A stretch of DNA of 64,000 bases from the IMG/VR virus record IMGVR_UViG_3300030085_002029, positions 588-64,587 of that record; one strand, 5' to 3'. A program made the translations under genes and the position numbers. Each line of letters begins with the position of its first letter. The stretch's first letter is position 1. The notes beneath the pieces were generated by a model. That model worked only from the letters and a program-made list of their open reading frames with translations. It was not told the origin of the DNA and searched no databases. Below are positions 12,201-47,195 of this stretch, one piece after another. The stretch is from a virus. Lineage: Duplodnaviria; Caudoviricetes.

Positions 12201-13518
12201 TAGTAACTCTATTGTAACCATTATTAAGAAACTCTATATGTGGCGGTAAAATTTCTTTTAAAGCTGCTATACCTTGAGTAGGCTTTTGTCCAGATATAAT
12301 AGGTTCGTATAAACTAACAAAACCTTCTTCATCTCTAGATGAAAAATATCTTCTTCTATTATCTATATTACTGTAATCAGCTAATCTTTCATTTTTTCGC
12401 TTTATCGCATCTTTAACATCCTGTTTACTAGTTTCAACAACGAATTCATCGAGAAAAACCATGGTTTCGTCATCTTTGTTTACGTACTTTTTATCAGACC
12501 TAAGCCAATAACCTGCTCCTTGTGCTGTGCCATCTGTGTTCCATTTTTCTATATACTCTTCAACGCTGTTGAATTTAGGTAAAGAGTATATACTATTTAG
12601 GTATTCCTTTCTTAATGCTCTTTCAGACTGTTCATTTACATTATCTCCACCATGAAGTTTAGCGTATGTATCAGGATTTTTAAATTCTTTATATGTATAC
12701 CTAGGTCCATCTACGTATATATCTCTTATATCATTATAATTATATACACCTTTTAGTTTACCATTTTTATCATAGTGATAATACAATGTGTTTTCTAAAT
12801 TTAAGGCATGTGCTTCTGACTCAGCTTTCTTTTTTAAAAACAGTTCTTGATGAATTTTATTTTCTACAGTAATCAGCTTGTTATACTCTGTAACTAAAAA
12901 ATCAATATCTTCTTGGGTTTTTAATAATTCCTCTTTCTTTTCAACATGTCTGGCCATTATTTCGTTATAAACATCCAAACTTAACTGATCGCCTAACCAT
13001 TGAGTTTCGCCCTTATCATTGGTTCCTATAAAATTATCTATACCCTCTGGAAACTCTACATTTAATTCTGATTCAAGGTCAGCTGCCGCTTTGTCTGTTA
13101 GAGATTGTAAGTAGTCATTTATAGGATTTGTTTTATCAGTCTTTTTTATTTTTCTTAAGTTGATATTATATTTATCTTCAAAAGCTTTAAGTATTTCTTT
13201 ACTCGTTGTATATGTAGTTGGATCACCGGGCTCTTGATCATTTGCACCATCTAATGGATCAATCTCTATGTTTTCTACATCTGGATCTTCTTCTATTTTG
13301 TTTTTTGCTTCTTCTTCTTTTATTTTAGCTTGAGCTGCGGCTTCTTCTTCTTGTTTCTTTTTAAGTTGCTCTGCTTTTTTCTTTTCTATTAACTCGGCTT
13401 CTTCTCTTTTCTTTTTTTCTTCTTCTGTCTCTATTAAAGTAAAATCATTAGGAACCTCAACTTTGTCTTCTATTAAAGTAAAGTCGGTTGGTATTTGTAA
13501 CTCTTCGTATCCAGCCAT
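3220..13518 (-). CDS. Giant multidomain internal virion (ejection) protein
   Basis: 3432 aa, last gene of the tail operon; HETSH (HExxH), EHVIP, and HAD-type VFDFDDTL...VLTAR...FADD motifs. Confidence 0.7.
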   Translation of the reverse strand: MAGYEELQIPTDFTLIEDKVEVPNDFTLIETEEEKKKREEAELIEKKKAEQLKKKQEEEAAAQAKIKEEEAKNKIEEDPDVENIEIDPLDGANDQEPGDPTTYTTSKEILKAFEDKYNINLRKIKKTDKTNPINDYLQSLTDKAAADLESELNVEFPEGIDNFIGTNDKGETQWLGDQLSLDVYNEIMARHVEKKEELLKTQEDIDFLVTEYNKLITVENKIHQELFLKKKAESEAHALNLENTLYYHYDKNGKLKGVYNYNDIRDIYVDGPRYTYKEFKNPDTYAKLHGGDNVNEQSERALRKEYLNSIYSLPKFNSVEEYIEKWNTDGTAQGAGYWLRSDKKYVNKDDETMVFLDEFVVETSKQDVKDAIKRKNERLADYSNIDNRRRYFSSRDEEGFVSLYEPIISGQKPTQGIAALKEILPPHIEFLNNGYNRVTMTNTRLDRSDPNRQITISFGYKMPKLFGWGEWTDKEIAKQEGDLANWLSLNTNAEDITYMLQKDEEINDYIRKLNEKDSNEGGLNVEWKREGMINAYMNPSFENTKYVANTVGQLFAADGNTLGEVQATPVSVNMFHFSPVQDADRVYEDRGIPTEGDYQDFVSYKNRNVVNGVVYKDNVNDKNAEALNAAFNAFLESNSIGGVGGNVNTSSLPIYRQNAKVTDFGDDIEGGGKYLTRGKGYSIVAAEVNDELAGLENYERIKAYSLKNEEALFSYTAKDGTKKIFDTEEWSKNNNGKNFTQHIATLAVTDFLVPEQMFDARKEAVENFIEIDRWETEERQVQGKLMLGQLKISQQQKNKLAALNIENKKITQEYKDQNLYSVETLQAIMNDPSYDIDVDLFGADGEIVEITTNYKGADGEFVKKLIPKRIADQAQIQMNQAIWLSQRAKSNIIEFDSLLEEMPSDNERWEAYKLNYSDFDMNVENFLLGGADFIGNILYGGYKYLTPYGWANSALKAGGIIKEDPITEVMLGWKTYKENHMNTYNLPNFETINSFGDFSSWFFNMAGTQAWQFTTMAISGGSAYIPLTLLGLSATGDRDLNYRSQIAKGNLTMNEGGIMWRSLLSGISEGTLGSLGQFRIIQKGFGLAKGAGKFADDVWVTSRRQYFRQQASPLIKDLALDVGGENINQIFNNIMDGNPYTEGLGEVTATSLLMSGPIAVASPVYYGLATKDFIAADIRNTIDEQTYELKQLKDKSGYLTRQMQGMLTSNLGKPFNPTVSLKVQNINQQIALNNEAIASLEIDLAESWNNFDYQFKNVGLNSTVNSVGVNNYTAMMKKMSLIKAEALTLVNDKNIAPSLKESKLKLLNDMYSGLNQSKNKYLSTKYWSNPYYSLQGSGFFNKKNKAKLEELDRKAEEAILQDKGLKHNPTAQEIQDKAVEIYNTELALEQANIDKRANPNLMIVESFEDVETIINNSDLNETDKKATINGIKNKTKNGFTIVNPEGNNVEVAYIPNMAHNSMFNTGGHETSHTPSAKLMMENPEKFTGFGEQLLAYMEDLDPRVWEVIQAENSNLKNEDGSWDYTEVIASFIEATGGPNPKIKADDLTKGNFPAIFATLLNKGLHEASDGDYTIPFRGQNDVVQYFIGMAAALNKGEINIGTYTERLTELVESQTPVVDINQQAETADQPVAAAASDIKSSDVTLLEAINNLLPKDINTKAKYDEFIRDERKAKAVIDSLNKPGGAINNYIRSKQVSPEEGDQMIENTLFRLFNFNPEETRADGSVVGPEGFGERIFADTRFASMDARKKLAIEAEKKKQESRIDDEEAKQIAADDSPKSKPEDKKSRVTPKSKIPKAFPEVINQELKDDFMAAALEIYESELPPISEKEFKAVVTDIFRGKMTDKVKKALGNNKMYEFTVKKMAPVMKDLLPPQWFVRLESQVKPEDRIFTKPPRRLTKQADIDKALDNDKVYVENTKQGVNLYEFKDFKPQELIDFLLPPLKITSKKTGKEVRSGLRGNRKTAFAEGITDQLGKDVSPSAARKAGKSPNQIAEIAKKMQVEPTIKFSAAGVNEKMKKIGSYDFRGYNSKGELNAKDRDAFMVSMLDSYDLGSETLTSGSFANMSSGLSKGQNLNAVDRAKLKLLLLFANKTKSGWNLNEITIPDVGNIDLSNSSLSELESLYKKYKSKADPLKVKKSENLQKVFASVSTAWKEISTSPNTFYNDPKYIENRQANYLGFGEMIKSFDDTYKKSKNKVGVLQMIGGIFRTASANSSHVVRMAAYPSGLTLTYNDGSGITREHVIPQADIADFIFDLIADPSLDTDLGIKLINKNFLQLFISHNQDGLLKKAGFQSKMPDGYWKSWYDALRSGDLSTAWDFETRYFHPDVNKQKNPDGTLGFDPFGTMLLGESIAAKYKLENIVPKNQRSNPNVRALTQQLIYDLASKKIDTKTAQKELFQYLKDNGNGSLATNQNKATKVTAAEIVSSEVTNANDNNDINSLINDARTLDTALNKANSLDQPIKKIRVFDFDDTLATSNNIVIATKDGKTKRLNAEEFAKQGLELREDGWDMDFSDFNNVTDGGRGPLFDVAQTIKKARGNEDLFVLTARAPQAQDAIYEFLKAEGLEFKKENIIGLGNSTGEAKAEWLVGKAAEGYNDFYFADDAYQNVAAVKLAMSQLDVKSKVQQAKIKSSEVLSEDFNKLLEESTGVEFYKEYSPVKAKTVGANKGKFKFFIPYSAEDFLGLIYPTLAKGTTGDKQMAWYKKHLLDPYTKAQENLSAARLNLMNDFKTLKKSLDVPKDLRKKNQTGLTNEQAVRVYLFDQMGYDVPGLSKRDLQELTDIVNSDGKLKVFADQILTITKGDGYIKPKADWQVGTITTDLVDLINTEKRAKYLAEWQQNADAIYTEKNLNKLEALYGSKYVEALRGILSRMKSGRNRLETGNRLSNKMLDYINGSIGTIMFFNTRSAVLQTISSINFLNWSFNNPYQAGKAFANQKQYWTDFVKLMNSDYLKDRRNGLKLNIQESEIADAAATAKNKSKAVLNYILQKGYLPTQYADSFAIAAGGATFYRNKINDLIKNEGMSQADAEAQALVEWRQIAEESQQSSDPSRISAQQSGDFGRLILAFGNTPMQYARIQKRAIQDLINGRGDAKTNVSKIIYYGVIQNIMFNALQQALFAIGFGDEDEDKINERVYDMLNGSLDSTLRGLGIGGVAVSTAKNFLLNVYERSGRKRPEYVDSVWELLRFSPPIYSKISKLKQAAWQFDSKKRRQKIFDKGFSLDNPAYEAFAKIVSATANVPIDRLFYKFKNIEGALNSDNEMWQRIAMAAGWPKWQLEKPKTEKQEEEERQAKLSPEEKIKEQEIKKEQKAVSKADKARERVKAAKGSTDYDTLKKLTSAEQIKMLKGLGYGEYTIKNAKTEDDKIKLIIHKNSGGKIKVDKIAAATYKYKKLNKAEQIAKLDSLGLSKAQIKALKYEEDRVKKIIELMKEQ

Positions 13519-31428: not shown

Positions 31429-31697
31429 TTACTTCTCCCTTCAGCAAACTTAAATACTCTTTCTTCTTTAACTTCTTTAATCTTACCACTTAACTTTTCT
31501 TCTTCGTCTTGTATGCGTGTTAGTATTTCAAAAGCGTCAAATATAGCTAGCTTTTTTGTAGCTGCTGCATTTTTTAATCTATCGGCAGTAACGTCTTCAC
31601 CTGTATCTACTATAGGTTCTTTTGCAACTTTTATTAGTTCAGCTACAGCTCGTTGTCCTGCTTCTATTATTTTCTTTTTGGTTTCCTTCGTGTTCAT
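31425..31697 (-). CDS. Possible terminase small subunit
   Basis: 90 aa helical protein overlapping the terL start. Confidence 0.4.
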   Translation of the reverse strand: MNTKETKKKIIEAGQRAVAELIKVAKEPIVDTGEDVTADRLKNAAATKKLAIFDAFEILTRIQDEEEKLSGKIKEVKEERVFKFAEGRSK

Positions 31698-32235
31698 TAG
31701 TTAAAGCTATGTCATTTGATTTCATACAATAAAGTTTCTCTTCGTCAATTATAAATTCAAACTCAGAGTTTGGTGTAAAGACCACTAGCGCTCCAGGTGT
31801 TATTCCTACAGCTTCTAAGGCGCTATTAGAATATTTTAATATACCAAAGTGTTCTTTTTCTTTAGACGTGCTTAGATATGATTTATTTTTAATTGGCTTA
31901 ACAAAACAATAGTTTAAATTACATTTACCATTATACATGTATATTTGTTCTGGACTACAAAAATATAAGTCTTCTTTGAAATATAAAGCTGAGTTTCTTT
32001 CTCTTCCTTTTTGATCATACCACCTTCTAAACACGTTGTGATGTACATACACCACGTCACCTGGTTTAACGTCAGTATCAAAAGCAGCAGGTGTAGATAC
32101 AACCACTGCTTTTTTACTAACGAAAATATGATTTTCAATACTCGTATTTATTATTAATTCCTTGTTATCTACTTTTTTTACATTATCATACCTTTGATTA
32201 TAAGGCTTAATAATAAAGTTATATAAACTTTTCAT
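31639..32235 (-). CDS. GroES-like protein with two repeats
   Basis: FIIKP...AVVVSTP...VKPGDVVYVHH followed by FVKP...GILKY...ITPGALVVF. Confidence 0.55.
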   Translation of the reverse strand: MKSLYNFIIKPYNQRYDNVKKVDNKELIINTSIENHIFVSKKAVVVSTPAAFDTDVKPGDVVYVHHNVFRRWYDQKGRERNSALYFKEDLYFCSPEQIYMYNGKCNLNYCFVKPIKNKSYLSTSKEKEHFGILKYSNSALEAVGITPGALVVFTPNSEFEFIIDEEKLYCMKSNDIALTNEHEGNQKENNRSRTTSCS

Positions 32236-35531: not shown

Positions 35532-35984
35532 TTAATTTTTAATTTTTGTTATTTTTTCAGCGCCTCTTGAACCAAAGTAGGCTACATAAACTGTAATTAG
35601 TAGAGCTTCTAATAAAGAAACCCAACCTGTTTTTATTTCTAATAATACTGTTGAGTCTAGTATTATAAATATTGTCATAGCTAAAGTAAGAAATATAAGC
35701 GTCATAGGTCTCGTGTTTTTACTTAACCATGAGTCACTTTTCATATCACTCGCCCATCGGTTAGATATGTTATTCATTTCAGCTATATCTTGATCTAAAA
35801 GTTTTAAAGCCATTTCTTTATCTTCGGCCTTAATAGTTCTATCACTTGTTATAATATTTTTTACTACACCAAGGCCTCCTTGATCAGGTAAAAATTCCCC
35901 TAATTTAGAAACAAGTTTAGGAGCTTTCTCGATTAAAAAAGCTCCAACTTTAGTTTCTTTAAATTTTTTCTTTTCTTTTTCCAT
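35532..35984 (-). CDS. Holin (3TM-type-like)
   Basis: RWASDMKSDSWLSKNTRP, two TM helices, YFGSRGAEK. Confidence 0.7.
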   Translation of the reverse strand: MEKEKKKFKETKVGAFLIEKAPKLVSKLGEFLPDQGGLGVVKNIITSDRTIKAEDKEMALKLLDQDIAEMNNISNRWASDMKSDSWLSKNTRPMTLIFLTLAMTIFIILDSTVLLEIKTGWVSLLEALLITVYVAYFGSRGAEKITKIKN

Positions 35985-37474
35985 TATCCTCTATATCCAA
36001 ACAACCTAACTTTTAAAGGAACCATGTTTTTAGTTTTACTATTCTTTTTTAAGTTACCTGAATAGCTAGTATCTTTTTTAAACATCTTACCTATTTGTCT
36101 AAGTTTTGCTTGTCTTTTTTGTTGTCGTACAGGTTTCATACTTTCTCTAAAAGCTTTTCTACTAGCTTTATTATAACTTCTCTGCTGTTTGTTCATTGAC
36201 CTAATATCTTTCCTAGTTGGACTTCCAAACATTCCAGAAGCATAAAGTTGACCAGGCGCGCACTTACCTTCTTTAGTACATTTATTACTAAATTCAGTAG
36301 GTTCTAATTTTCCTGGTGGATTCTTTGAGGGTTTATTAGGAGGTGGTTTTATTTTTTCTTTCTTCTTACCTTTTCTTTTTCTCCATGATTCTTCAGTTAT
36401 ACCACCTGATCTTTCAGTTTGAACTACTAATTTTGGTGTTTGAACTACATTAGCAATAGGTTTAGCTTCAATCCTTTTCATTGGCATTATCACCTCTTTT
36501 TTAGGCTTGTAATATGTAGCATCGTAGTTAGCTACATTACCTTGAGATATGTGACCTTTGTCTGCTAATTCTTGACCTGAAGAACCGGGATAAGTTATAG
36601 ACATTTTTTCCATCCATTCACTAGGAGTACCAGTAAATTGCTTTTGTCCTTTTTTAGCTGTTGGTACTTTTTTTCCATCGTCATCATCTGGTACAGTATT
36701 TCCAGGAGTAGGAAGCTTTTCCTTTGGATCAGCTGGTTTTTTATTTGGTGGAGTTGGCTTTGTACTTGGAGGTGTTTCACCACCTGGTTTTTCAGTCTCT
36801 GAACCAGGTGTTGTAGTAATTTTAGCTTTACCACCAGTAACTATATTTAACATATTTTCTGCAGCTACATGACCATGGAAAGTATTTGGTTGTACTTTTT
36901 TAATAGACCCTCCTTTTTCTCCTGTCTTTGTATTAACATATTTGGTTTTAGTTATTACAGTTCCTTTTTCAGGACCAAATCTTTTAGTTTTTACTTTTTC
37001 TTTTACTTTAACATCTGGATCTTTTTTTTCTTCTCCTCCAGAAACTGTGTAGTTCATAGACGGTCCAATTAAACCTTTATCAGCCATTGCTGCAAATGGC
37101 TTACTGTTACCTCTATGTCCTTTCATTGAAAAACCTTCTTTCATGTCATGTTGTTTATTGTTTAGTATTTTGTCGCTTTCTGCATAAGCTTTTTTCTCCC
37201 ATGGTAAGTTTTTATCAAACTCATCTAAATTTTCTCTAGGATATGTTTTACCTTTATAGTAGAAATTATTTTCATCATAGTCTAAATGAGGATCTAACTG
37301 GTGTACAGTTTCATGAGCTACCACAGCATCTTCAACTTCTTTTGGTAAACCTTCTTGAACTATAATACCAGTATGATTTGATTTACCAACAGCGCCATCT
37401 TGTATATTTTTTCTATATACAGGTATATTCATATCTGACTCTGTGTAAGGTGCTCCGTTTAGTTTAAAACCCAT
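35984..37474 (-). CDS. Zincin metallopeptidase domain fused to a long basic Lys/Pro-rich tail
   Basis: VVAHETVHQ (HExxH) and downstream PWEKKAY Glu in the first ~105 aa. Confidence 0.6.
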   Translation of the reverse strand: MGFKLNGAPYTESDMNIPVYRKNIQDGAVGKSNHTGIIVQEGLPKEVEDAVVAHETVHQLDPHLDYDENNFYYKGKTYPRENLDEFDKNLPWEKKAYAESDKILNNKQHDMKEGFSMKGHRGNSKPFAAMADKGLIGPSMNYTVSGGEEKKDPDVKVKEKVKTKRFGPEKGTVITKTKYVNTKTGEKGGSIKKVQPNTFHGHVAAENMLNIVTGGKAKITTTPGSETEKPGGETPPSTKPTPPNKKPADPKEKLPTPGNTVPDDDDGKKVPTAKKGQKQFTGTPSEWMEKMSITYPGSSGQELADKGHISQGNVANYDATYYKPKKEVIMPMKRIEAKPIANVVQTPKLVVQTERSGGITEESWRKRKGKKKEKIKPPPNKPSKNPPGKLEPTEFSNKCTKEGKCAPGQLYASGMFGSPTRKDIRSMNKQQRSYNKASRKAFRESMKPVRQQKRQAKLRQIGKMFKKDTSYSGNLKKNSKTKNMVPLKVRLFGYRG

Positions 37475-37475
37475 A

Positions 37476-38285
37476 TTACTTATTTCTAGCTTTTATTCTT
37501 TCTGTTCTTTCTCCAGCTGATATAGCTCTTCTTTTAGTTCTTTCTGCTTGTCTTAATGCAATGTTTTTTTCACGAGAAGCTATTCTAGCTTTTTTAACAT
37601 CAGGATCTCCTTTTATCATATCTTTTAAATTACCACCTAAGTTTTTTAAATTAATAGAAGGACCATCTCCATAGACCATTTGTCTCCAATTACCACTTTT
37701 TCTACTAGTCATTCTGTCAGCTCTCTTTTGTGTTACAAATTTTGTTTTAGTTTTATAAGCTGACATAGGTAGCCAAGCGCTAGTTTGATCTTTATATTCT
37801 TTTTTAAGTCTTTGTTTTTGAACTGGCACTTTATTTTCTCTAGCTTGTTGGCGTAATTGTTTTTTAGAGTTTTTAGTTTCAGTAGTTGTGTAGTTCATAC
37901 CAGGACCAAAACCACCTTTAAAGTGAGGTCTAAATTGATCGTTAATTATTCTACCTCTAACAGTAACTTCTTCTCCACTGCCACCTTGATTCTGCATTCC
38001 CATTTGATTAGCCATCATGTTAGCTCTCATAGCTTGTATTTTTCCTAGAAAACCAGGAAAAAGACCACCGCCACCACCGCTGCCACCAGCTGGTGGTTGA
38101 GGATCATTACCGCCGCCAGTAAGAGCATTACCAACAGTACTAGCAACATTACCAACGGTATTGGCCACACCTGATATTGCATCTCCTACTTTGTCAAAAA
38201 AACCAGAAGGTCCATATGCTTTTTCAACCATATTAGCTCCTTTGCTTTTCCATCTATTATTATCGTTTATGTAGTTTTTAGCCAT
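37476..38285 (-). CDS. Basic Gly/Lys/Arg-rich protein with G[AP]xM motifs
   Basis: 269 aa; GANMV, GPGMNYT, GPSIN. Confidence 0.6.
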   Translation of the reverse strand: MAKNYINDNNRWKSKGANMVEKAYGPSGFFDKVGDAISGVANTVGNVASTVGNALTGGGNDPQPPAGGSGGGGGLFPGFLGKIQAMRANMMANQMGMQNQGGSGEEVTVRGRIINDQFRPHFKGGFGPGMNYTTTETKNSKKQLRQQARENKVPVQKQRLKKEYKDQTSAWLPMSAYKTKTKFVTQKRADRMTSRKSGNWRQMVYGDGPSINLKNLGGNLKDMIKGDPDVKKARIASREKNIALRQAERTKRRAISAGERTERIKARNK

Positions 38286-38302
38286 AATTTTATTTATTTG
38301 TC

Positions 38303-38740
38303 TTATCTTTCTGGTTTAAAATTCCTAGTCTCCAAACGTTTTTGGATTTTTTTTCTTTCTTGCTCTTCCTTTTTTTTAGATCTAGTTTTAGATGTAACTT
38401 TTGTATTCATTGCAGCTCCACCTTTACCTTCAGCTGATGCTTTAGATTTATCTACAACAGGGTTTTTGTCAAGTAAGTTTTTAGCGTGTTGCTTGTTACT
38501 CATTGATGCTCCTTCGCTAGGTTTTAGTTGAGGATACTTTGCATATACGCAAGCTTTAATTTTGTTAGATCTTCTACCAGCATTATGAGCTAATTTTAAA
38601 GCTGACTTAGCTCTCTTAAGTGTATTAACTGGATATGTTCCATTAGGTCCACAAAAATCCTCTTTTGCAACATTTGGATATTTACCAGCATTAGACATGC
38701 CTGGTTCTTCTCTTATTTCAGATATTTTCTTCTTTGCCAT
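38303..38740 (-). CDS. Basic Lys-rich protein
   Basis: 145 aa; FCGPNGTYPV, GASMS, GAAMN. Confidence 0.6.
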   Translation of the reverse strand: MAKKKISEIREEPGMSNAGKYPNVAKEDFCGPNGTYPVNTLKRAKSALKLAHNAGRRSNKIKACVYAKYPQLKPSEGASMSNKQHAKNLLDKNPVVDKSKASAEGKGGAAMNTKVTSKTRSKKKEEQERKKIQKRLETRNFKPER

Positions 38741-38744
38741 AACT

Positions 38745-38897
38745 TTATTTTTTATTCATGTTATATGGAAAATTTTTGTTAAACCACTGTTTTCTTTTAT
38801 CACAATTACAACCACCAGGTATAGTGTCTACTAATTTTTTTATACCTGTAGCTGTAGTAAATTTTTCTATACTATCTCCTAAACCTCTTGATTTCAT
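38745..38897 (-). CDS. Small protein, 50 aa (MKSRGLGDSIEKFT...GCNCDKRK)
   Basis: Fills the gap exactly; CxC motif; not in the ORF track. Confidence 0.6.
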   Translation of the reverse strand: MKSRGLGDSIEKFTTATGIKKLVDTIPGGCNCDKRKQWFNKNFPYNMNKK

Positions 38898-38898
38898 T

Positions 38899-39162
38899 TT
38901 ACCATTTTACTTTATTAGCCCAATATGCAGCTGACATTTTTCCTTTAGCTATATTCTTGCCATGTCTAGCTTTGAAACTAGCTCTTCTAGCTTTAGATTT
39001 TTTATCTTGCTTTTTACCAGCTGTAGATACGCCTTGTTGACCAAATCTTATTATTTTTTCTTTACCACCTTCACAAGCTTTTACTATATGAGACTTAGTT
39101 TTATGATTAGGAGTTCTTCTTGGTTTATTACAAGGTAAGTCTTTTTTAGTCAACTTACTCAT
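38899..39162 (-). CDS. Small basic conserved-type phage protein
   Basis: 87 aa; KIIRFGQQG, RRASFKARH, SAAYWANKVKW. Confidence 0.65.
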   Translation of the reverse strand: MSKLTKKDLPCNKPRRTPNHKTKSHIVKACEGGKEKIIRFGQQGVSTAGKKQDKKSKARRASFKARHGKNIAKGKMSAAYWANKVKW

Positions 39163-39313
39163 TACTTTTATTTTTAGGTAGTGATTTTATTTTACCGTTT
39201 TCAGTACGAGCGTATCTATGTGTTTCTGTTTCCATGCTGGGAATTAACGTGCCGCAGTACTTTCCTTTACCATACTTCCAGCATATTTTTTTTCCTTTTT
39301 TCTTACGAGCCAT
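39155..39313 (-). CDS. Small basic protein, 52 aa (MARKKGKKICW...)
   Basis: Coupled to both neighbours; not in the ORF track. Confidence 0.5.
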   Translation of the reverse strand: MARKKKGKKICWKYGKGKYCGTLIPSMETETHRYARTENGKIKSLPKNKSNE

Positions 39314-39588
39314 TACTTATCTTTTTTATTACTTAATTTGCCGTCAACTTCTCTACACCAAAAAAGTATTTCATCTACTTTTTCTTCTAAGTCTTCAATA
39401 TGTTTTGTTTGCCACTCTTGTTTTAAATCATATTCAATACGATCTATTACAGCTGGTGGCATTTTTTTAGCTTCTTCTATGTCAGCTTGTAAAGTATAAT
39501 ACATTCCTACAAACATAGAGGTTATAACTATTAAGCTTATGACAGTTTTAAGATCTATCTTAAATTCAGTTCCCTCAGAGATTTTCAT
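39313..39588 (-). CDS. Single-TM coiled-coil protein, possibly a lysis accessory
   Basis: Likely start MKISEG; TM segment VISLIVITSMFVGMYY; follows the amidase. Confidence 0.5.
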   Translation of the reverse strand: MKISEGTEFKIDLKTVISLIVITSMFVGMYYTLQADIEEAKKMPPAVIDRIEYDLKQEWQTKHIEDLEEKVDEILFWCREVDGKLSNKKDK

Positions 39589-39988
39589 ATTCATGTGTAG
39601 CATCAAATGATGGACACGCTTTGTTAGCAAAGTCCTTGTGTGAATGTATTACAGCATTTGGGTACATAGCTTTTAAAGTTCTAAGTACACATAACAATGC
39701 TTCTTTTTGACAGTCTAGTCTAGTATCTTTGGGAGTCTTACCATCTGCTTCAACGCCTCCACAATAACATATCCCTATCGAATTTCGATTGTGCCCTTTA
39801 CAATGAGCTCCCATTTTAGCTATATCTCTACCTTTGTGTATATTACCATATAGGTCGATATAGAAGTGATAGCCAATATCGCTCCAGCCACGTCCTTCAA
39901 CGTGCCATCTACGTATTTCAGCTACATCAAAGTTTTCTCCTTCTCTAGTTGCAGAGCAATGAACTATAATCTTATTTATTTCTCTCAT
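39575..39988 (-). CDS. N-acetylmuramoyl-L-alanine amidase (T7 lysozyme-like endolysin)
   Basis: IIVHCSAT, GWSDIGYHF, GAHCKGHN, SIGICY, KACPSF. Confidence 0.93.
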   Translation of the reverse strand: MREINKIIVHCSATREGENFDVAEIRRWHVEGRGWSDIGYHFYIDLYGNIHKGRDIAKMGAHCKGHNRNSIGICYCGGVEADGKTPKDTRLDCQKEALLCVLRTLKAMYPNAVIHSHKDFANKACPSFDATHEYENL

Positions 39989-40500
39989 GTTTTTTCATAA
40001 TTAAAAAGTTCTGGGCTTTGCTTAAACAACGCTTTCATAGCTTTACTATCTTTCTTACTTTGTTTATCGTGATATTTAACTTTTTCTTTATTTCTGCGTA
40101 AACCGAAATTCTTTATTTGTCTATCACTTTCAAATAATAAATTACCATCACTATCTATTACATCAGCATGCTCCGTAAATATATCTTTATTACCTAAAAT
40201 TTTTTGAGCTAAAGGAATTTTTCTAGGAGTACTTGACTCTTTTGAACTAATAGTGCTAATTTCTCCAGTATTAACATTTGTTTGTTTGCTGTTAAAATTA
40301 GAGCTTTGACTAAAAGTAGATTTATTTTTATTACCAAAAAGCTTTTGTGCTAAACGGTTTTTTCTAGGAGTACTTTTGTCACTTTGATTTGTTTTAATAG
40401 TTGAGTTTGCCTCTATTTTATATTTAGACGGATCTACTCCTCTTGATTTTTTAAGTTTAGCTTCAGCACTTTTTAGGTCTAGTTTAGATTTTGTATTCAT
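39985..40500 (-). CDS. Basic Lys/Ser-rich protein with an internal repeat
   Basis: 171 aa; STPRKNRLAQKLFGNK and STPRKIPLAQKILGNK. Confidence 0.55.
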   Translation of the reverse strand: MNTKSKLDLKSAEAKLKKSRGVDPSKYKIEANSTIKTNQSDKSTPRKNRLAQKLFGNKNKSTFSQSSNFNSKQTNVNTGEISTISSKESSTPRKIPLAQKILGNKDIFTEHADVIDSDGNLLFESDRQIKNFGLRRNKEKVKYHDKQSKKDSKAMKALFKQSPELFNYEKT

Positions 40501-40856
40501 TGTTTGTAGCCTTTTAAGTTTGCACCTTTTTTAACATAGTCGGGAGCATGGTTGTAGTTTACCGTAATTTCTTCTCCTGCTTTAATATCCTTTAATGCAT
40601 AAACATTTAACATATTGTTTTCACTTACGTTCATAGCGTTGGGATCTTTTTGGTGGTTTAAAGATTTACCAAGTATAGTTCTTGTATCTATCATAGGCAT
40701 GTTAACTACTTTAGACTCGTCTTCAAAAGCAGTGTCTATAAATTCTCCTTTTTTAAAATCCCTATCTGCTATTACACCTAAACCATCTACCATACCTTCA
40801 TTAATTATGCTGTATGGCTTGTTGTTAAACTTAGGTCGTTTAAGTTTGAAACTCAT
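40497..40856 (-). CDS. SET-domain protein-lysine methyltransferase
   Basis: GLGVIADRDFKKGEFI, LNHQKDPN, ALKDIKAGEEITVNY match the three SET signature motifs. Confidence 0.85.
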   Translation of the reverse strand: MSFKLKRPKFNNKPYSIINEGMVDGLGVIADRDFKKGEFIDTAFEDESKVVNMPMIDTRTILGKSLNHQKDPNAMNVSENNMLNVYALKDIKAGEEITVNYNHAPDYVKKGANLKGYKQ

Positions 40857-41011
40857 TACGCTTTAAAAGCTAATAAAAATTCTCTTAAACCCATTCCAAA
40901 AGCAACCCCAGCATATAGCATATGTGAGTGCATTAGTAATAATAATCCTATACCTATACAAGCAACAGCTTTAGACAAAGGGTGATTTATAATTTCCTTA
41001 ACAGTTTCCAT
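40856..41011 (-). CDS. Small membrane protein, 51 aa
   Basis: METVKEIINHPLSKAVACIGIGLLLL...; hydrophobic; coupled to the SET start. Confidence 0.5.
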   Translation of the reverse strand: METVKEIINHPLSKAVACIGIGLLLLMHSHMLYAGVAFGMGLREFLLAFKA

Positions 41012-41012
41012 A

Positions 41013-41171
41013 TTATTTATTTTTTTTCATCATCCACCACTTGTGTGCAGTGTAGCCGATGGTTACAAGTAATAATGTAATTTTTAATACAGGCTCTAAC
41101 CAGTCAAAACTAGCTATAGTAAACGAAGTTATGTTTAAGCAATATAACTTCAAATCGTCTAAACCGATCAT
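41013..41171 (-). CDS. Small membrane protein, 52 aa, holin-like
   Basis: MIGLDDLKLYCLNITSF...LKITLLLVTIGYTAHKWW. Confidence 0.55.
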   Translation of the reverse strand: MIGLDDLKLYCLNITSFTIASFDWLEPVLKITLLLVTIGYTAHKWWMMKKNK

Positions 41172-41341
41172 TTCTGAGCGTTTAATACAGCGTTACCTTT
41201 GTAAGCGCAGTTTGTATTAATAACCAAACCTGGTTTAATAGTTGTGTCTCTTGACGTCATAACTTTAACACCTGAAGACATTTTCTTCATTGGTGATTTA
41301 TCTACTCCTGCTGGAGCTTGGAATCTTCCTATACTTGGCAT
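41168..41341 (-). CDS. Hypothetical protein, 57 aa
   Basis: MPSIGRFQAPAG...YKGNAVLNAQK; fills the gap. Confidence 0.5.
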   Translation of the reverse strand: MPSIGRFQAPAGVDKSPMKKMSSGVKVMTSRDTTIKPGLVINTNCAYKGNAVLNAQK

Positions 41342-41360
41342 AATTTTTTTTTTTAATGTT

Positions 41361-42509
41361 TTATTGATATGATCCTAAACTTTTTATAGTAGAATCTTGT
41401 TTTGCTGTATATGCAGATATTTTAGTAGGCACAACAGAGCTTGGTGAAATAGGTTGAGGTGAAGAACTTCTAGATGTATCTGGTTTTAATAGTTGTTTTG
41501 TTTTATCAGCAAGTTCTTTCATTCTTACAGCGTTTCTAAAATCAAACTGAAAGTTACCAATAGATATTGGTAGTTGTCTTTGCATTAATCCTTCCATTAC
41601 TGCTTTTTTATCTCCTTGTCTTTTGTCTATATAAGAACTATCTTGTGAAGCCATTTTAGGTACCATTGATGCTCCACCGTAGGCGTAACCGCCTCCGCCA
41701 TATCCACCCATACCACCACCTGGATTATAAGCTACTTGAGCGTCTTCTGCTTCGTCATCTTTTTTAGAAGTTAGTCTACTAGCTAAATTAGCTGCAGCTG
41801 AGTTAGTTGCTGATTCTATAGCAGTTTTACCTAGAGGTGAAGATGCTGCACTTTTAGCTCTGTTAGTAAATCTATCAACAGCGGCTTTAGGATTTGCTTT
41901 AAAGTTTTGAAACTTTTGATCTAATATACCTCCTGCCATTTTAGCTTTACTACCTATATTTTGAAACATTTTACCAAAGTCAATACCTTTTGATGGACCC
42001 ATTGCAGTACCACCAGTAGCATATCCACCACTACTATGATTTACCGGAGATACACCATGTGGAACAGCATCTGGTCCTGGAATTTCTTCATCTTTTTTAC
42101 TAGTAGCTCTACTTGCTAAATTACCAGCCGCGCTACTTGTTGCACTAGACATAGCTGCTTTAGCCGCTTTTGATTTAGCTGCTTTAGCTGCCGCAACTCC
42201 AACTTTGGATGCTGCTGCTTTTTTAGCTACAGCTGCTGCTTTTATACCTAGTTTCTTTAATATTATAGCTGCGGTAATTGGCTCTGATGCTCCACTTTTT
42301 GAGTCATAAGTATCTACCATGTTTGGAGCTGCATCAGCTCTATCATCAGTTGGATTATATTCTAAGTCTGCAGCTGCTTCTCCCATATATGGACCTGTAT
42401 TATCATACATATTTGGACCTTTATTGCTTTTATACATAGAACCACCATCTCTTCTCTGGTGCATAGCAACACCGTGCATAGGAGTATTTTTAGGTTGATT
42501 ATAAGCCAT
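41361..42509 (-). CDS. Ala/Gly/Lys-rich protein with many GxxM motifs and an internal duplication
   Basis: Likely start MAYNQ at 42509; GVAM, GGSM, GPNM, GPYM, GTAM, GASM; the SATxSAAxNLASRxTSKKD block occurs twice. Confidence 0.6.
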   Translation of the reverse strand: MAYNQPKNTPMHGVAMHQRRDGGSMYKSNKGPNMYDNTGPYMGEAAADLEYNPTDDRADAAPNMVDTYDSKSGASEPITAAIILKKLGIKAAAVAKKAAASKVGVAAAKAAKSKAAKAAMSSATSSAAGNLASRATSKKDEEIPGPDAVPHGVSPVNHSSGGYATGGTAMGPSKGIDFGKMFQNIGSKAKMAGGILDQKFQNFKANPKAAVDRFTNRAKSAASSPLGKTAIESATNSAAANLASRLTSKKDDEAEDAQVAYNPGGGMGGYGGGGYAYGGASMVPKMASQDSSYIDKRQGDKKAVMEGLMQRQLPISIGNFQFDFRNAVRMKELADKTKQLLKPDTSRSSSPQPISPSSVVPTKISAYTAKQDSTIKSLGSYQ

Positions 42510-42945
42510 TGTTTCTTGTTTTATCTTTATTAACATTCAGTATAGATGTATTTAAAACTTTATAAATATATCTATCATTTTTTTCAAATATCTTATTAGG
42601 CATATCTTCTTCACCTAACATAATTCGATACATTCTACTTATTAACTGTTTGCACTTTGTGGATACTTTATATATATGATATTTTTGGGTTGTGCGGTTT
42701 CTTTTTCTCCACACGGTAATCCACCCTTGCTTCAATAATCTGTTCCAGCGCCTGTTGTCCCAGCTATAAGAGTAAGTACCTTTTTTAAAATCATCTTTTG
42801 TAAACAAATCAATTGCTTCAAGATAGATTAAAAGCTCAAGGTCTGCTTCTTTAATATCACAGGTTTTGCACGCCCATTTACGTATAATCCTGTAATGTTT
42901 CAGTAAATTCAATTGTTTCAAGTCAGACGAGCTAATTCTTCGCAT
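42499..42945 (-). CDS. Winged-helix-like DNA-binding protein
   Basis: 148 aa; DLELLIYL...LLKQGWITV...IYKVS..CKQL MarR-like pattern. Confidence 0.45.
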   Translation of the reverse strand: MRRISSSDLKQLNLLKHYRIIRKWACKTCDIKEADLELLIYLEAIDLFTKDDFKKGTYSYSWDNRRWNRLLKQGWITVWRKRNRTTQKYHIYKVSTKCKQLISRMYRIMLGEEDMPNKIFEKNDRYIYKVLNTSILNVNKDKTRNNGL

Positions 42946-42947
42946 GT

Positions 42948-43208
42948 TTATAAGATAATAACTACGTCGTTTTCTTTTATTATTTTCCAGCTTTTTTTAT
43001 CTATTTCAATATTAAAGCCTGCGTTTTTATCGTAGTATATAGTATCGCCTTTTTTAATTGCTTCTACTGCTCCTCCGACTACTAGCACTTCTGCTTGTCT
43101 GTATCTAACATCTTCTCTTTGTGATTCAGCTAGAATTAAACCACCTTTTGTTTTAGTATTAACTTCTTTTAAAGGTTTTATTGCTATATATTTACCAACT
43201 GCTTTCAT
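42948..43208 (-). CDS. groES: Co-chaperonin GroES
   Basis: KTKGGLIL mobile loop, VLVVG, IKKGDTIYY; adjacent to groEL. Confidence 0.88.
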   Translation of the reverse strand: MKAVGKYIAIKPLKEVNTKTKGGLILAESQREDVRYRQAEVLVVGGAVEAIKKGDTIYYDKNAGFNIEIDKKSWKIIKENDVVIIL

Positions 43209-44752
43209 GCTCTTATATTATTAATTACACAATCAGTTGATAATATGGTTGTGGCTACTGAAGCCGCGTTTAACAATGCGCTTTTAGTAACCAGCAAAGG
43301 ATCTATTATTCCGGCTTTAACCATATTAACCATATTTCCTGTAACCACATCTAGTCCTATACCTTCTTCTTCGCATTTATTTTGTTGTGATATACCTGCA
43401 TTTTGTAAAATTAAATTGTATGGTTGTCTTATAGCTTGGTATAAAACTTCTTCACCTATACAATCTGCTGTTAAATGTTGAGCGGCATTTAGTAAAGCTA
43501 TACCACCTCCTGGTAGTATACCTTCTTTAATCGCGGCTTTTGTAGCACATATAGCATCTTCAACCCTATCTCTTTTTTCTTTTAACTCTATTTCGGAACT
43601 TGCACCCACTTTTACTATAGCTACTTTTGCTTTAAGTTTTGCAAGTCTTTTTTCTAAACTTATAATTTTATTTGGGTTTTTTGTTTTTTTAAGTTTAGCT
43701 TCTAAGAACTCAATAGTATGTTTTACTTCTTCGTTGTCTGACAAGTCAACTTGTAGTATTGTGTCTTCCTGGTTAGTTATACTTCTTTTGCATGAACCTA
43801 AGTGTTCTATAGATATTAAGTCCATGTCGTCGCCTAAGTCTTCATTTATTAAAGTAGCACCTGTTACATCACAAAGATCTGACAATGTGTCTTTTCTACT
43901 AACACCAAATGTAGGCGCGTTAATAATATTAACTTTTATATTACCTTTAATTTTATTCATTGCTAATGCAGAAAGTACTTGAGATTCAACTTCTGCAATT
44001 ATAAGTAGACTTTTGTTGTTTTTTATAACATACTCTAATACGTTTTGTATTTTTCTTATATTAGGTATTTTAGATTCTACTATAAGAACTAAAGGGTTTG
44101 TTAACTCACATACTCCTTTATCTTTGTCTGTTATAAAATGATTGCTAGTTAAAGCTTGATCATATTGAACTCCTTCTACTAGTTCTACTATAGTGTTAGG
44201 ATACTCATTAGTTTCCATCATTACTATACCAGTTTCATCTACTAACTTAAATGCTTTTCCTATTACATCTCCTAACGACTTATCATTATTTGATGATATA
44301 GTTGCTACTTGATTTATTTTATTACCTGATACTTTTTTAGTTTTCTTACTTAAGTATTTTATAACTTTATCTACTCCTGAATTAATACCTTCTATTAAAG
44401 ATCTTGTATCATCTAATAAATCATGTTCTCCTGCTTCTTTTAATATAGCTTTAGCAAGAACTGTAGCGGTTGTAGTTCCGTCTCCTGCATCTCTAACTGT
44501 TCTTTGCGCTGCCTCTTTAATTAGTGTAGCGCCAATATTTTCTAGTGGATCTTGTAATGTTATTGAATTAGCAACGGTAACACCATCTTTAGTTATTATT
44601 GGTTTACCATGTTGATCTTCTAATATTACGCACTTACCACTTGCTCCTAGTGTAGAGCTAACCGCGTTAGTCAGTTTGTCTACTCCAGCTAAAATCTTTC
44701 CTCTAGCATCGTCACCAAAGGAAAGACTTTTAACTAATTTTATATCTTCCAT
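43205..44752 (-). CDS. groEL: Chaperonin GroEL
   Basis: [34 protein letters not shown]; lacks the GGM tail. Confidence 0.95.
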
Positions 44753-44777
44753 TATATTTAATTAAATTTAATTGTGT

Positions 44778-45062
44778 TTACTCGAATGTTTTAACTACTT
44801 TTGGTCCTTTTAAAAATTCCAACTTTTTACTGTAATGTTCAATAGATCCATCAATAGCAGCTTCAGCACCGTCCATTGTTTCTCTTCTTGTTACATCTAT
44901 CCAGTCTTCACTTTCAGGGTGTAAGTATTCAGTTTGAAAAAATCCATTTGGTAACTGTACAATCCTCCAGTTCTTTTTTTCGGTTATGTGTTTCCAATGG
45001 TCGATCATTCTTTGATCTGGTTGTATAGCAGCTTTAAAGCCGCTGGTATATAAAAACGTCAT
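44778..45062 (-). CDS. Hypothetical protein
   Basis: 94 aa; NWRIVQLPNGFFQTE, WIDVTRRET. Confidence 0.6.
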   Translation of the reverse strand: MTFLYTSGFKAAIQPDQRMIDHWKHITEKKNWRIVQLPNGFFQTEYLHPESEDWIDVTRRETMDGAEAAIDGSIEHYSKKLEFLKGPKVVKTFE

Positions 45063-45091
45063 GGTTTATGTTTTTAGGTTTATATATAAGT

Positions 45092-45115
45092 ATTCCCCCG
45101 CTTTCGCGGGAGAAT
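45092..45115. terminator. GC-rich hairpin, possible terminator
   Basis: ATTCCCCCGC-TTTC-GCGGGAGAAT in an intergenic gap. Confidence 0.5.
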
Positions 45116-45122
45116 TATTTTT

Positions 45123-46091
45123 TTATTCTTCCACAGGTGGTTCTTCTGCTTCAGCTGGTGCAAATGGTGAGGATGATGGGTCTGCTTCCCACGCGTCAAT
45201 AGTTGCTTTAGCTTCTACTCCGTCAACAGATGCTTTTAAAGCTTCTGATGCTGCTGACTCTGCAGTGCTAGCCGTTTCTGTTGCCTCAACTGCTGCTTCA
45301 TTTGCTTTAGCAGCTGTTGTACTTGCGTCTGTTGCTGCACTTGTTGCCTCAGCTGCTGCTGCTGTAGCAGTTTCTGCTGATGATTGTGCCTCATCAGCTT
45401 TACCATCGGCTGTTTCTGCCAACGCGGCTGCTGCATCCGCTGCTGCTTGGGCTTCGTTTGCTTTACCGTCAGCTGTTGCCGCCGCATTTGCTGCATTTTC
45501 TGCTGCAATTTCCGCGTCAGCTGCTGCTGCTGAAGCTTTTTCAGCGTTACTATTAGCGACTTCTGCATCGGCTGCTGCATTGTCAGCGGTATCTTTTACA
45601 GTTTCTATTTCTTTAGTATTAGCATCAGCGTCTTCTTTCACCGACTCTATCTCTTTAGTGTTAGCATCAACCTCTTTTTCAATTTCATCAATGTCGCCAG
45701 TGTTGGTTTCTACGTCTTCTTTAAGACTTTCAACTTCTTTTTCTAATTCTGACAAATCTCCAATAGGTGAAGCTTCTAGTTTAGCAATTCTTGCTTCAAA
45801 ATCTGCGTTAATTATCGCTTGAGCTGCTGCAAACTCGTTAAATGCAGCGCAACAAGCTTCTAGACTTGCTACTTGTTCTTGTAAAACACTAACAATACTT
45901 GTTAACGATGCTATGTTTTCTGTATTTACCGCTACAAGTTTTTCTAAAAGGTCTAATGCTTCTTTAATATCGGCTAATAAGTTACCAACCGATATTTGTT
46001 TGGTCATTTTTTTCTCTTCTGAGTCTGATATTATGATTAAATCAGAATCAGCGGCCTTACCTTTGGTTGGATATGTATATATTATTGCCAT
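45123..46091 (-). CDS. Fibre-like coiled-coil protein with Ala-rich repeats
   Basis: MAIIYTYP...DLIIISD fibre-type N-terminus, 14-aa ANTKEIE repeats, Ala-rich heptads. Confidence 0.6.
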   Translation of the reverse strand: MAIIYTYPTKGKAADSDLIIISDSEEKKMTKQISVGNLLADIKEALDLLEKLVAVNTENIASLTSIVSVLQEQVASLEACCAAFNEFAAAQAIINADFEARIAKLEASPIGDLSELEKEVESLKEDVETNTGDIDEIEKEVDANTKEIESVKEDADANTKEIETVKDTADNAAADAEVANSNAEKASAAAADAEIAAENAANAAATADGKANEAQAAADAAAALAETADGKADEAQSSAETATAAAAEATSAATDASTTAAKANEAAVEATETASTAESAASEALKASVDGVEAKATIDAWEADPSSSPFAPAEAEEPPVEE

Positions 46092-46095
46092 TTTT

Positions 46096-46806
46096 TTATA
46101 CTTTTAATTTTTTCTCTTGTTCTTTTCTGTATTTATCTCTTGCTGCAGCGTCAGATTTTGGATTTTCTTTAATATATTTTCTAACTAAGCTATTTACAGC
46201 TCTTTCTCTTTTTTTGGTTGACTTTTCTGTAGCTTTATTTTCTTTCTTTTTTATAAAAGCTTTTTTGTCATCTACTTTTTGTCTTTTCTTTCTAGCTTTT
46301 TTTCGTATTTTTTCTACTCTAGTGCTGTTTGGTTTCTTAGCTTCCTTAATATCTGCTTTAGTTTCTAATTTAGTAGCCCTAGTAGACTTTTTAGCTAAAC
46401 GTTTTACACTCATATTGGCACCTTCTCCTTTAATACCTACTGTTTTGTATATACTATACTCACCATATCCATCTAGAGTATCTTTTTCATGCTGAACTTG
46501 GTAATCTAAGTCTTGTGGTAAACCTTCTGGACCATATTTTAAATGCTTGCCTCTTATTAAATCGCCTTCCCTAGGTCCATTCTGCATATTATGAGCCATA
46601 TGTCCGCTTTCAGTTATATACTGGCCTGGTATAGAATGTATTGGCTTTATTGGCTTTGCTGGCATATTAGGCTTTTTAACTGCTGTATTGTCTGCTACAG
46701 CAGGTTTTACCTCCATCGATGCTCCATGCCTTTTACTCTTGGCGCTTCCTGGCGGAATACCACCCATGCTATGTCCGCCTTTTCTATTAAACTTTTTTAA
46801 ACTCAT
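46096..46806 (-). CDS. Highly basic Lys/Arg-rich protein
   Basis: 236 aa; GHSM, GASM, GANM; very basic C-terminal half. Confidence 0.6.
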   Translation of the reverse strand: MSLKKFNRKGGHSMGGIPPGSAKSKRHGASMEVKPAVADNTAVKKPNMPAKPIKPIHSIPGQYITESGHMAHNMQNGPREGDLIRGKHLKYGPEGLPQDLDYQVQHEKDTLDGYGEYSIYKTVGIKGEGANMSVKRLAKKSTRATKLETKADIKEAKKPNSTRVEKIRKKARKKRQKVDDKKAFIKKKENKATEKSTKKRERAVNSLVRKYIKENPKSDAAARDKYRKEQEKKLKV

Positions 46807-47195
46807 TAGCTAAAGTGTTTACTGTAGTGATTATGTCTTAATACTGGATGCTTTGAATGATAAGCAGCTTCGTCATTTTCTAGATAATGAAGTCTAGCAC
46901 TAGCTGTTAGATCTTTATTATGTGCCATTTTAGCATCGTATGCTTCTGCAGACATGCTTGAACCATTGTCAAAAGAAACCGTTGCTACACTTCCAGCATC
47001 TCCAAAAGCTCCCTCTGGTAAAGCTGGATTATCAGATTGAGATCTGGTAACATTCGCTTTAGCGAAATTATCAGCTATCGCCGTGTTCCACTCATCTGTG
47101 GCACCGTGCTGGTTTTTTCTTTTATGTTTGTTGGCTCTGCAGTCTTCTTTTCTTTTTCCACGCTTTAACCAACAATGTCTACTATTTTTTCCCAT
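46806..47195 (-). CDS. Basic hypothetical protein, first gene of the late arm
   Basis: 129 aa; GSSMS; LTASARLHYLEN. Confidence 0.55.
   Translation of the reverse strand: MGKNSRHCWLKRGKRKEDCRANKHKRKNQHGATDEWNTAIADNFAKANVTRSQSDNPALPEGAFGDAGSVATVSFDNGSSMSAEAYDAKMAHNKDLTASARLHYLENDEAAYHSKHPVLRHNHYSKHFS

Follow-up and report, generated by a model that had tools for sequence, protein, structure and literature searches.

To our knowledge, the serine prohead proteases of large myoviruses are the only enzymes for which motif-coded proteolysis of head and ejection proteins has been described, and processing of packaged proteins by zincins has been proposed from domain architectures and never tied to a site. 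The T4/phiKZ-type enzymes are assemblin/HK97-type serine proteases that cut after Glu. For SPN3US, motif-coded cleavage of head and ejection proteins has been described at 14 sites in nine substrates (PMC10052503). For phage polyvalent proteins, zincin domains have been proposed to act on polypeptides ahead of packaging, within the head or once injected, and with this the notion that zincins process packaged polypeptides is already published (PMC5512222). We analysed a 64,000-nucleotide stretch (the window) of the IMG/VR virus record IMGVR_UViG_3300030085_002029. An earlier note, made from its letters alone, had pointed to a short motif, GxxM, in at least six otherwise dissimilar late proteins next to a predicted zincin protease, and had proposed a cargo-processing system. 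Here we report that the motif is a genuine conserved short linear motif of Lys-rich late proteins, that it marks the joints between protein modules, and that, tentatively, these joints may be processing sites for the phage zincin.

The proposed window system is like those of T4 gp21 with its internal proteins and of phiKZ/SPN3US gp245, where many head proteins carry one short cleavage motif with several copies per precursor, and where short (20-24 amino acids, aa) and long leaders are removed (PMC10052503). It differs in that the candidate enzyme is a zincin, in that the motif is G-[AP]-x-M or DGAS, and in that the head location of its proteins is putative. The polyvalent proteins of phages and plasmids likewise have a zincin with HExxH and a downstream Glu in a polypeptide presumed to accompany the DNA (Iyer et al. 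2017, PMC5512222), and the ArdC protease domain is among the fold matches of the window zincin (Z 3.7). Where polyvalent proteins have a series of globular effector domains, the window zincin is partnered by disordered basic tails and by small proteins encoded separately, and the zincin is often a stand-alone protein of ~105 aa with a defined candidate site motif. The best fold neighbours, ImmA/IrrE/PprI/CapP (M78) and Wss1/SPRTN, are small zincins that act on DNA-associated proteins and are stimulated by DNA; they are early, regulatory or repair proteins, whereas the window zincin is a late-operon product. The minigluzincins (selecase, abylysin and jannalysin), archaeal proteins whose physiological substrate is unknown, are of similar size (~105-110 aa), have an HExxH core and fill the top Foldseek rows (E 0.1-0.16, prob 0.80-0.89), but their identity to the window zincin is only 7-15% and no match passes E 0.001. 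Within its particle, adenovirus uses one protease to cleave several basic precursors bound to the DNA, each at a short motif that contains Gly, and small basic peptides stay behind on the genome. The adenovirus enzyme is a cysteine protease of a eukaryotic virus with no homology to the window zincin, and the likeness is a functional analogy alone.

We confirmed all 16 GxxM tetrapeptides listed in the earlier note in their open reading frames (ORFs, named here by their lower coordinate; Table 1). One further instance, GGGM, brought the total to 17, and 10 of these were G[AP]xM. In the 35984 protein the two instances were GFSM at residue 114 and GPSM, followed by NYT, at residue 137. Upon shuffling the residues within each protein, which keeps composition constant (5000 shuffles), the six ORFs exceeded expectation for GxxM (17 vs 5.21 ± 2.11), for G[AP]xM (10 vs 0.82) and for Gx[SANG]M (16 vs 1.72), and the observed count was reached in 0/5000 shuffles each time. 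The other 75 ORFs held 31 GxxM against 23.3 in shuffles (24/300 reached 31), and the refined patterns were not in excess there (G[AP]xM, 2 vs 2.56; Gx[SANG]M, 4 vs 6.15). To avoid a post hoc choice of ORFs, we also shuffled the whole 81-ORF proteome (200 shuffles). We observed 48 GxxM compared to 28.6 ± 5.2 (0/200) and 8 G[APS][SN]M compared to 0.6 (0/200). The enrichment over a composition-matched background on which the earlier note had made its proposal depend was observed.

These counts bear on the explanation that the motif is a chance or low-complexity artefact, with tetrapeptides picked after the fact. The six ORFs were indeed chosen post hoc, and one listed instance, GFSM, is not conserved: its column in homologues of the 35984 protein reads RFQL, KFKL and similar, and it is probably a chance occurrence. 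The shuffles never reached the observed counts (0/5000 and 0/200), and the same tetrapeptides head an unbiased ranking in independent contigs, described below. We regard an artefact as extremely improbable, and it is refuted as far as composition-matched shuffles can refute it. The codons of the motif differ from instance to instance. This indicates a protein-level signal and no DNA repeat, and rules out a DNA-level repeat or internal start sites as the origin of the motif.

We next describe the motif in related phages, where the earlier note had expected an equivalent. A zincin-selected sample comprised 42 loci (L001, L002 and L005-L044) on metagenomic viral contigs retrieved through alignment of the zincin domain. 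From the basic ORFs of these loci (98 after removal of redundancy) we ranked every pattern of three or four residues. The top-ranked patterns were DGAS (31 vs 0.5 expected), GASM (23 vs 0.4) and G.SM (48 vs 2.8), which stood above the patterns contributed by the homologous zincin domain. All three were absent from the top 30 patterns of 183 non-basic ORFs in the same loci. At least one small, mostly basic ORF (Lys+Arg 0.14-0.28) with 2-7 motifs of the G[APS][SN]M type lay near the zincin gene in 26/42 loci, including loci with a stand-alone zincin just 38-41% identical. BLAST detected almost no homology between the motif ORFs of the relatives and those of the window. In L001, an 86% identical relative, GxxM was kept at 15/17 positions, the changes being GASM to GASI and GPSM to APSM. 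A leader with G[GAS]SM near residue 11 was common to the N-terminus of the 46096 protein and to small ORFs of L006, L016 and L019, and the region after the motif in the 46806 protein resembled motif-bearing basic ORFs of L016, L031, L032, L036, L037 and L038. To judge from these alignments and counts, many related phages have this genuine and conserved short linear motif in Lys-rich late proteins that otherwise cannot be aligned. Its refined form is [K/D]-G-[A>P>S]-[S>N]-[M>A,V,I,L], often then [K/Y]-G; in the context logo, K-K-[D]-G-[A>P,S]-[S>N]-[M>A,V,I,L]-[K/Y]-[G], positions 1-4 are partly fixed by the search pattern.

Two relatives have mini-ORFs built of tandem units just upstream of GroEL: one of 57 aa in L025 (7121-7294), with NG[PA]MMKKK six times, and one of 51 aa in L020 (1189-1344), with KKGP[NK]MGH five times.

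The residues around the motif raise the alternative of a physico-chemical repeat, either Met/His-rich stretches that bind metal or Gly-Pro turns that lay basic repeats on DNA. Known comparisons are the Met/His repeats of copper proteins and the turns of Ser-Pro-Lys-Lys or AT-hook sequences. Runs of M-G-H, M-x-H-P-M and P-M-M-K around the motif in some relatives would suit this explanation, but many instances contain neither Met nor His, being DGAS with A, V, I, L or E next, and the motif also occurs in acidic linkers. Moreover, positions 2 and 3 are strongly held to A/P and S/N, also in the construction-free pattern test, and the placement of the motif at junctions is left unexplained. We consider such a repeat very unlikely.

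The earlier note had placed an HExxH...E zincin domain at the N-terminus of the 35984 protein, and our data support a zincin-like domain there. We found 126 homologues of this protein at E ≤ 0.001; beyond the closest few, the common part is the first ~140 aa. The N-terminal domains are about 45-75% identical, and the tails are unrelated and basic. H54, E55 and H58 were invariant in 47/47 aligned close sequences and in 17/17 of the broader family. E93, within PWE, was invariant in both sets, whereas E85 was invariant in the close clade only; D67 and an NFYxKGKxY block were also invariant across close and distant members. In the AlphaFold2 model (mean predicted local distance difference test score, pLDDT, 65), core residues ~20-105 reached a pLDDT of 77-89, HExxH fell in a predicted helix (45-60), and E93, a candidate third metal ligand, stood at the start of a predicted helix (91-113). 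The best Foldseek rows were minigluzincins, IrrE/PprI, Wss1 and SPRTN (selecase, E 0.1, prob 0.89). VIA-align against 48,161 chains ranked PprI first (Z 6.2, 80 residues, root-mean-square deviation 3.6), followed by the ImmA/IrrE-like regulator 6d2s (Z 5.6), Wss1 (4.9) and CapP (4.6). Further rows were the VgrG metallopeptidase domain, lugdulysin, ERAP1, abylysin, lethal factor, selecase, SPRTN (3.7) and ArdC (3.7). Nearly all of the top rows were thus occupied by zincins. The invariant HExxH and PWE and the predicted fold neighbours support a zincin-like domain; the fold neighbourhood is consistent but middling, and Z values below 8 may reflect a common arrangement alone.

The family comprised 121 clusters at 50% identity (E ≤ 0.001; 47 at 1e-10) among 1.84 billion representatives, and its members were either fused to a tail or stand-alone proteins of 102-113 aa. 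The nearest named Atlas clusters were M78 and SprT-like, with scores of 0.81-0.82 only. For 10 zincin homologues, the clusters held marine metagenome entries only. A pattern-seeded scan of 185,579 species genomes did not find the zincin, and no cultured isolate with it was present among 50,697 phage records; the same records gave no match to the 11-kb region (megablast) or to the 35984 and 37476 proteins (tblastn). The window zincin protein matched no Pfam or PHROG family, and Pfam and PHROG scans of the six motif proteins returned nothing meaningful. The tails of the 35984 protein and of its homologues were low-complexity and basic, with no family match, and a profile of the homologue alignment searched against PDB sequences returned no peptidase, only noise from low-complexity tails.

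We then considered where the motif falls. In most of the 120 zincin homologues listed, GL[IM]G closes the conserved domain, and [PA]S[ML] or xQD-DGAS comes directly after it. The motif after the domain is often repeated two or three times (GASM...GSSM...DGAS) within a short acidic linker, ahead of unrelated tails. Compared to L001, the 37476 protein has a 73-aa indel that begins directly past G[PA]GMN, and the 38303 protein is 91% identical over residues 1-112, with its C-terminal tail replaced directly past GAAMN. The true start of the 41361 ORF is likely the ATG at 42509 (MAYNQ...), and the ORF also has a GASE ahead of an Ala/Lys-rich hydrophobic stretch. An alignment of this family (10 sequences) showed just two conserved islands outside the C-terminal domain, in otherwise divergent sequence: a 13-16-aa N-terminal leader ending in GAS (10/10), which precedes the Ala/Lys-rich hydrophobic stretch, and G[APV]S[MYQ] ahead of the C-terminal domain (10/10, with GSM in two rows). 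Charge switches at several motif sites; across GANM of the 46096 protein, net charge goes from -2 to +6. A search for the tails of fused zincins as separate genes elsewhere gave one match.

The alignments show that the motif marks module joints: it stands where the zincin domain ends, where short leaders end and where swappable basic tails begin. The earlier statement that the motif often falls at boundaries held for several sites (a domain end, an indel, a tail swap and a charge switch) and not for all. Of the two motifs said to separate the zincin domain from its basic tail, GPSM stands at the joint and GFSM is the probable chance occurrence. An N-terminal leader was dropped as a general rule for the motif (14/89 vs 11.2 expected; P = 0.23).

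Joint placement, multi-copy linkers, short leaders, a mostly hydrophobic fourth residue and a neighbouring zincin together fit processing sites best. We therefore read the motif joints, tentatively and as something short of probable, as sites cut by the phage zincin. The late operon encodes several intrinsically disordered Lys-rich proteins, alignable to one another at the motif alone. On this reading the zincin-like domain would begin by releasing itself from its own tail at GL-I-G-P-S-M and would go on to cleave the other precursors. The cut would probably fall between the small residue and the hydrophobic fourth residue; thermolysin-type zincins usually prefer a hydrophobic residue after the cut. 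Cleavage would yield basic peptides or modules, with a hydrophobic new N-terminus in the 41361 family, which would be destined for packaging with the DNA or for ejection.

In its widest form, the proposal would make the ~105-aa phage zincins of uncultured marine viruses the first metalloprotease that matures phage cargo in the manner of the adenovirus protease. They would be packaged or assembled with the genome and would cut Lys-rich precursors at G-[AP]-x-M or DGAS joints. In some lineages, tandem-array mini-genes would be cut into 8-10-residue basic peptides that neutralise head DNA or are ejected, and cleavage would also unmask hydrophobic N-termini of ejection proteins. We consider this wider form unlikely.

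A number of observations weigh against processing by the window zincin. No Foldseek match reached E ≤ 0.001, VIA-align Z values stayed below 8, and no Pfam peptidase passed threshold (M78 matched 4/47 homologues, best E 0.13). In the AlphaFold2 model, residues 136-153 had a pLDDT <50 and the motif in cis was not docked. L001 has APSM at the joint of its zincin domain, and the bias of the motif toward N-termini was not significant. DGAS variants with E, K or S at the fourth position occur and do not fit a simple hydrophobic preference after the cut. In the tails of 53 more distant fused zincin proteins, the strict motif was not enriched (8 vs 4.4). The zincin is far more widespread than the motif, and their association was weak in a sample drawn independently of the zincin. 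This sample was drawn through the gene at 42499-42945 (minus strand), a good marker for the phage group. It encodes a 148-aa protein (phrog_17028) that is extremely conserved: identity was 65-84% among the 80 retained loci, and tblastn confirmed 584 relatives in the viral collection. Among 79 usable loci, 51 had the zincin and 28 did not. Motif counts were 55 vs 32.5 expected with the zincin and 14 vs 12.7 without it, and loci with three or more motifs numbered 6/51 and 0/28, respectively (P = 0.065, Fisher; P = 0.10, Mann-Whitney). In an unbiased search, a repeated xyzM pattern was found in 4/48 zincin-bearing and 1/24 zincin-less loci; with so few repeated Met-ending patterns, most zincin-bearing phages manage without the motif. 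The same search did not find a hidden lineage-specific replacement motif in the motif-poor zincin loci.

The coupling is thus less tight than the zincin-selected sample suggests, because that sample was retrieved through the zincin. All 6 motif-rich loci of the marker sample carry the zincin, and three zincin-less relatives (MW202828, Panino and elemoF) had 0 G[APS][SN]M each. The observed pattern is that the motif implies the zincin and the zincin does not imply the motif. A relaxed [PA]xM just past the domain was present in 19/49 distant fused forms (7.6 ± 2.4 in shuffles, 0/500); this is only a lead, as the pattern was a post hoc choice and the sequences are relatives of one another. The SET methyltransferase of the late block was rejected as a reader of the motif (present in 2/42 zincin-selected and 0/79 marker-selected loci). 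GroEL/GroES genes occur in motif-less relatives too. A complex prediction with zincin residues 1-132, residues 1-60 of the 46096 protein and Zn (score 0.01, mark 0.32) gave no answer either way.

This loose coupling bears on a second explanation, in which the motif is an uncut docking signal. The disordered basic proteins would bind a common partner (portal, capsid interior, scaffold, giant cargo protein or host factor) for co-packaging or for action after ejection, and the zincin would be merely one carrier of the motif. Most zincin-bearing loci lack the motif, as this would allow. The motif is present in multiple copies in Lys-rich, disordered proteins whose sequences are unrelated, as is usual for binding motifs, and tandem arrays with a regular ~9-residue spacing would suit multivalent binding. 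Docking does not account for a motif that stands exactly at domain ends and at recombination or indel breakpoints, in acidic and basic linkers alike, nor for the zincin in all motif-rich loci, and a partner for a docking motif was not identified. We regard docking as possible but doubtful.

A third explanation keeps the processing sites and assigns the cut to another enzyme, which could be the HExxH region of the 3432-aa late protein, a host protease or a phage protease that has escaped recognition. Lysis, or the cutting of host proteins after injection, would in that case be possible tasks of the small zincin. The single HExxH of the giant protein lies in a column conserved as HEITH in the giant ORFs (2608-2655 aa) of L043 and L044, at 32% local identity. 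This conservation offers an alternative enzyme and counts on that side, and the region may be a zincin domain of the giant-virion-protein kind, to judge by the alignment. Giant virion proteins fused to zincin domains have been reported (PMC5512222). The wide spread of the small zincin beyond the motif fits this explanation, as does the position of its gene, which adjoins a holin gene in the window and in L020, L021, L024 and L025 (extra ORFs lie between the two in L059, L065 and L100). Since the zincin gene often adjoins the holin, a lysis or host-directed role would fit too. Against the giant protein, its segment has no family match, Pfam included, and the conservation is confined to two loci. 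In most of the homologues listed, the small zincin has the motif where its own domain ends, and the three relatives with giant proteins and without the small zincin have no motif. Scans with Pfam and PHROG of most ORFs of at least 80 aa and of few shorter ones revealed no HK97-, T4 gp21- or phiKZ-type prohead protease, in line with the earlier note, and a 375-aa ORF between portal and capsid had no match. We judge cleavage by another enzyme to be quite unlikely. Processing by the small zincin is the reading we retain, and the weak phyletic coupling and frequent holin adjacency leave room for other zincin roles.

The literature searched, without supplementary files, contained no description of the motif or of a zincin as a phage cargo-maturation protease. 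In the crAss001 atlas (PMC10172136), "cleav" and "protease" have 0 occurrences each. Our analysis supplies a concrete candidate site motif and a compact candidate enzyme family, with substrates simple enough for a test-tube assay. If correct, the processing reading would account for the "hypothetical" low-complexity genes that marine flavobacterial phages commonly carry as a late block and would give a handle on cargo preparation in crAss-muzzle-type podophages. If it is false, the motif would still be a conserved interaction signal that deserves a partner search.

Table 1. Positions in the window of the motif-bearing ORFs, their motif sites and other late genes
Feature	Position	Strand	Remarks
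496-aa protein	35984..37474	-	zincin-like N-terminal domain of ~135 aa (about 37070-37474), then Lys/Pro-rich disordered tail
HETVH, residues 54-58	37301..37315	-	putative zinc-binding/catalytic motif; invariant H54, E55, H58
GPSM, residues 137-140 of 35984 protein	37055..37066	-	zincin domain end, domain/tail joint
269-aa protein	37476..38285	-	Gly-rich, then basic; GANM at residue 16 (38229-38240); GPGM-NYT at residue 127 (37896-37907)
145-aa basic protein	38303..38740	-	GASM at residue 77 (38501-38512); GAAM at residue 108 (38408-38419)
391-aa ORF	41361..42536	-	GVAM, GGSM, GPNM, GPYM, GTAM, GASM and the additional GGGM; GxxM sites 42462-42473, 42435-42446, 42408-42419, 42384-42395, 42000-42011, 41709-41720, 41664-41675
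236-aa basic protein	46096..46806	-	GHSM 46765-46776; GASM 46714-46725; GANM 46411-46422
129-aa protein	46806..47195	-	GSSM 46953-46964
GroEL	43205-44752	-
GroES	42948-43208	-
SET-domain protein, 119 aa	40497-40856	-	PF00856, E 1.4e-13; within Lys-rich late gene block
Amidase_2 endolysin	39575-39988	-
Holin-like gene	35532..35984	-	phrog_3427 holin, E 5e-20; immediately downstream of zincin gene
Large terminase subunit		-
Portal		-
Capsid protein		-
Crassvirus muzzle-domain protein	17659-20820	-
Crassvirus muzzle-domain protein	15953-17653	-
3432-aa late protein	3220..13518	-	single HExxH, HETSH at residue 1468; alternative candidate protease domain

The source is a crAss-muzzle-type podophage of marine Flavobacteriia with a single-contig genome of 64.6 kb (64,587 bases), of which the window covers 64,000 bases and thus nearly all. 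The phage capsid protein is 40-52% identical to those of Flavobacterium, Cellulophaga and Maribacter podophages. The minus strand from ~47.2 kb down to 2.1 kb forms a single long late block, in the order motif-bearing ORFs, GroEL, GroES, SET protein, endolysin, holin, large terminase subunit, portal, capsid protein, muzzle-domain proteins and 3432-aa ORF. Replication and nucleotide-metabolism genes occupy the plus strand past 47.7 kb. The two muzzle-domain proteins match the models PF25731 (E 1.3e-10) and PF25729 (E 9e-8). Because two proteins match Crassvirus muzzle models, this marine flavobacterial-type podophage has tail parts in common with Crassvirales.

Within the late block, an 87-aa very basic protein (38899-39162, minus strand) matches phrog_7595 (E 1e-34) and, weakly, the PHROG "minor head protein and DNA pilot". 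It ends in ...YWANKVKW, is 95% identical in L019, and in L059 is fused behind an additional N-terminal segment (165 aa). A gene that adjoins the terminase gene (31639-32235, minus strand) matches the PHROG "co-chaperonin GroES" (phrog_13932, E 7e-19), is additional to the GroES gene of Table 1, and has annotated counterparts in Panino and elemoF. A 322-aa Ala/Glu-rich coiled-coil protein (45123-46091, minus strand) shares its first ~40-60 residues with far larger ORFs of relatives (220-851 aa). The 253-aa Ala/Ser-rich ORF antisense to it (45061-45822, plus strand) is in all likelihood an artefact that mirrors the repetitive coding strand. The N-terminus of the SET protein, M-S-F-K-L-K...P-Y, resembles that of the zincin protein, M-G-F-K-L-N...P-Y, and the two might have a common targeting leader. 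In the early region, a class I methyltransferase (54540-55034, plus strand) also scored above the cut-off of the DOT1 model (29.7 bits vs 23), so that together with the SET gene this small phage genome has two protein-methyltransferase-like genes.

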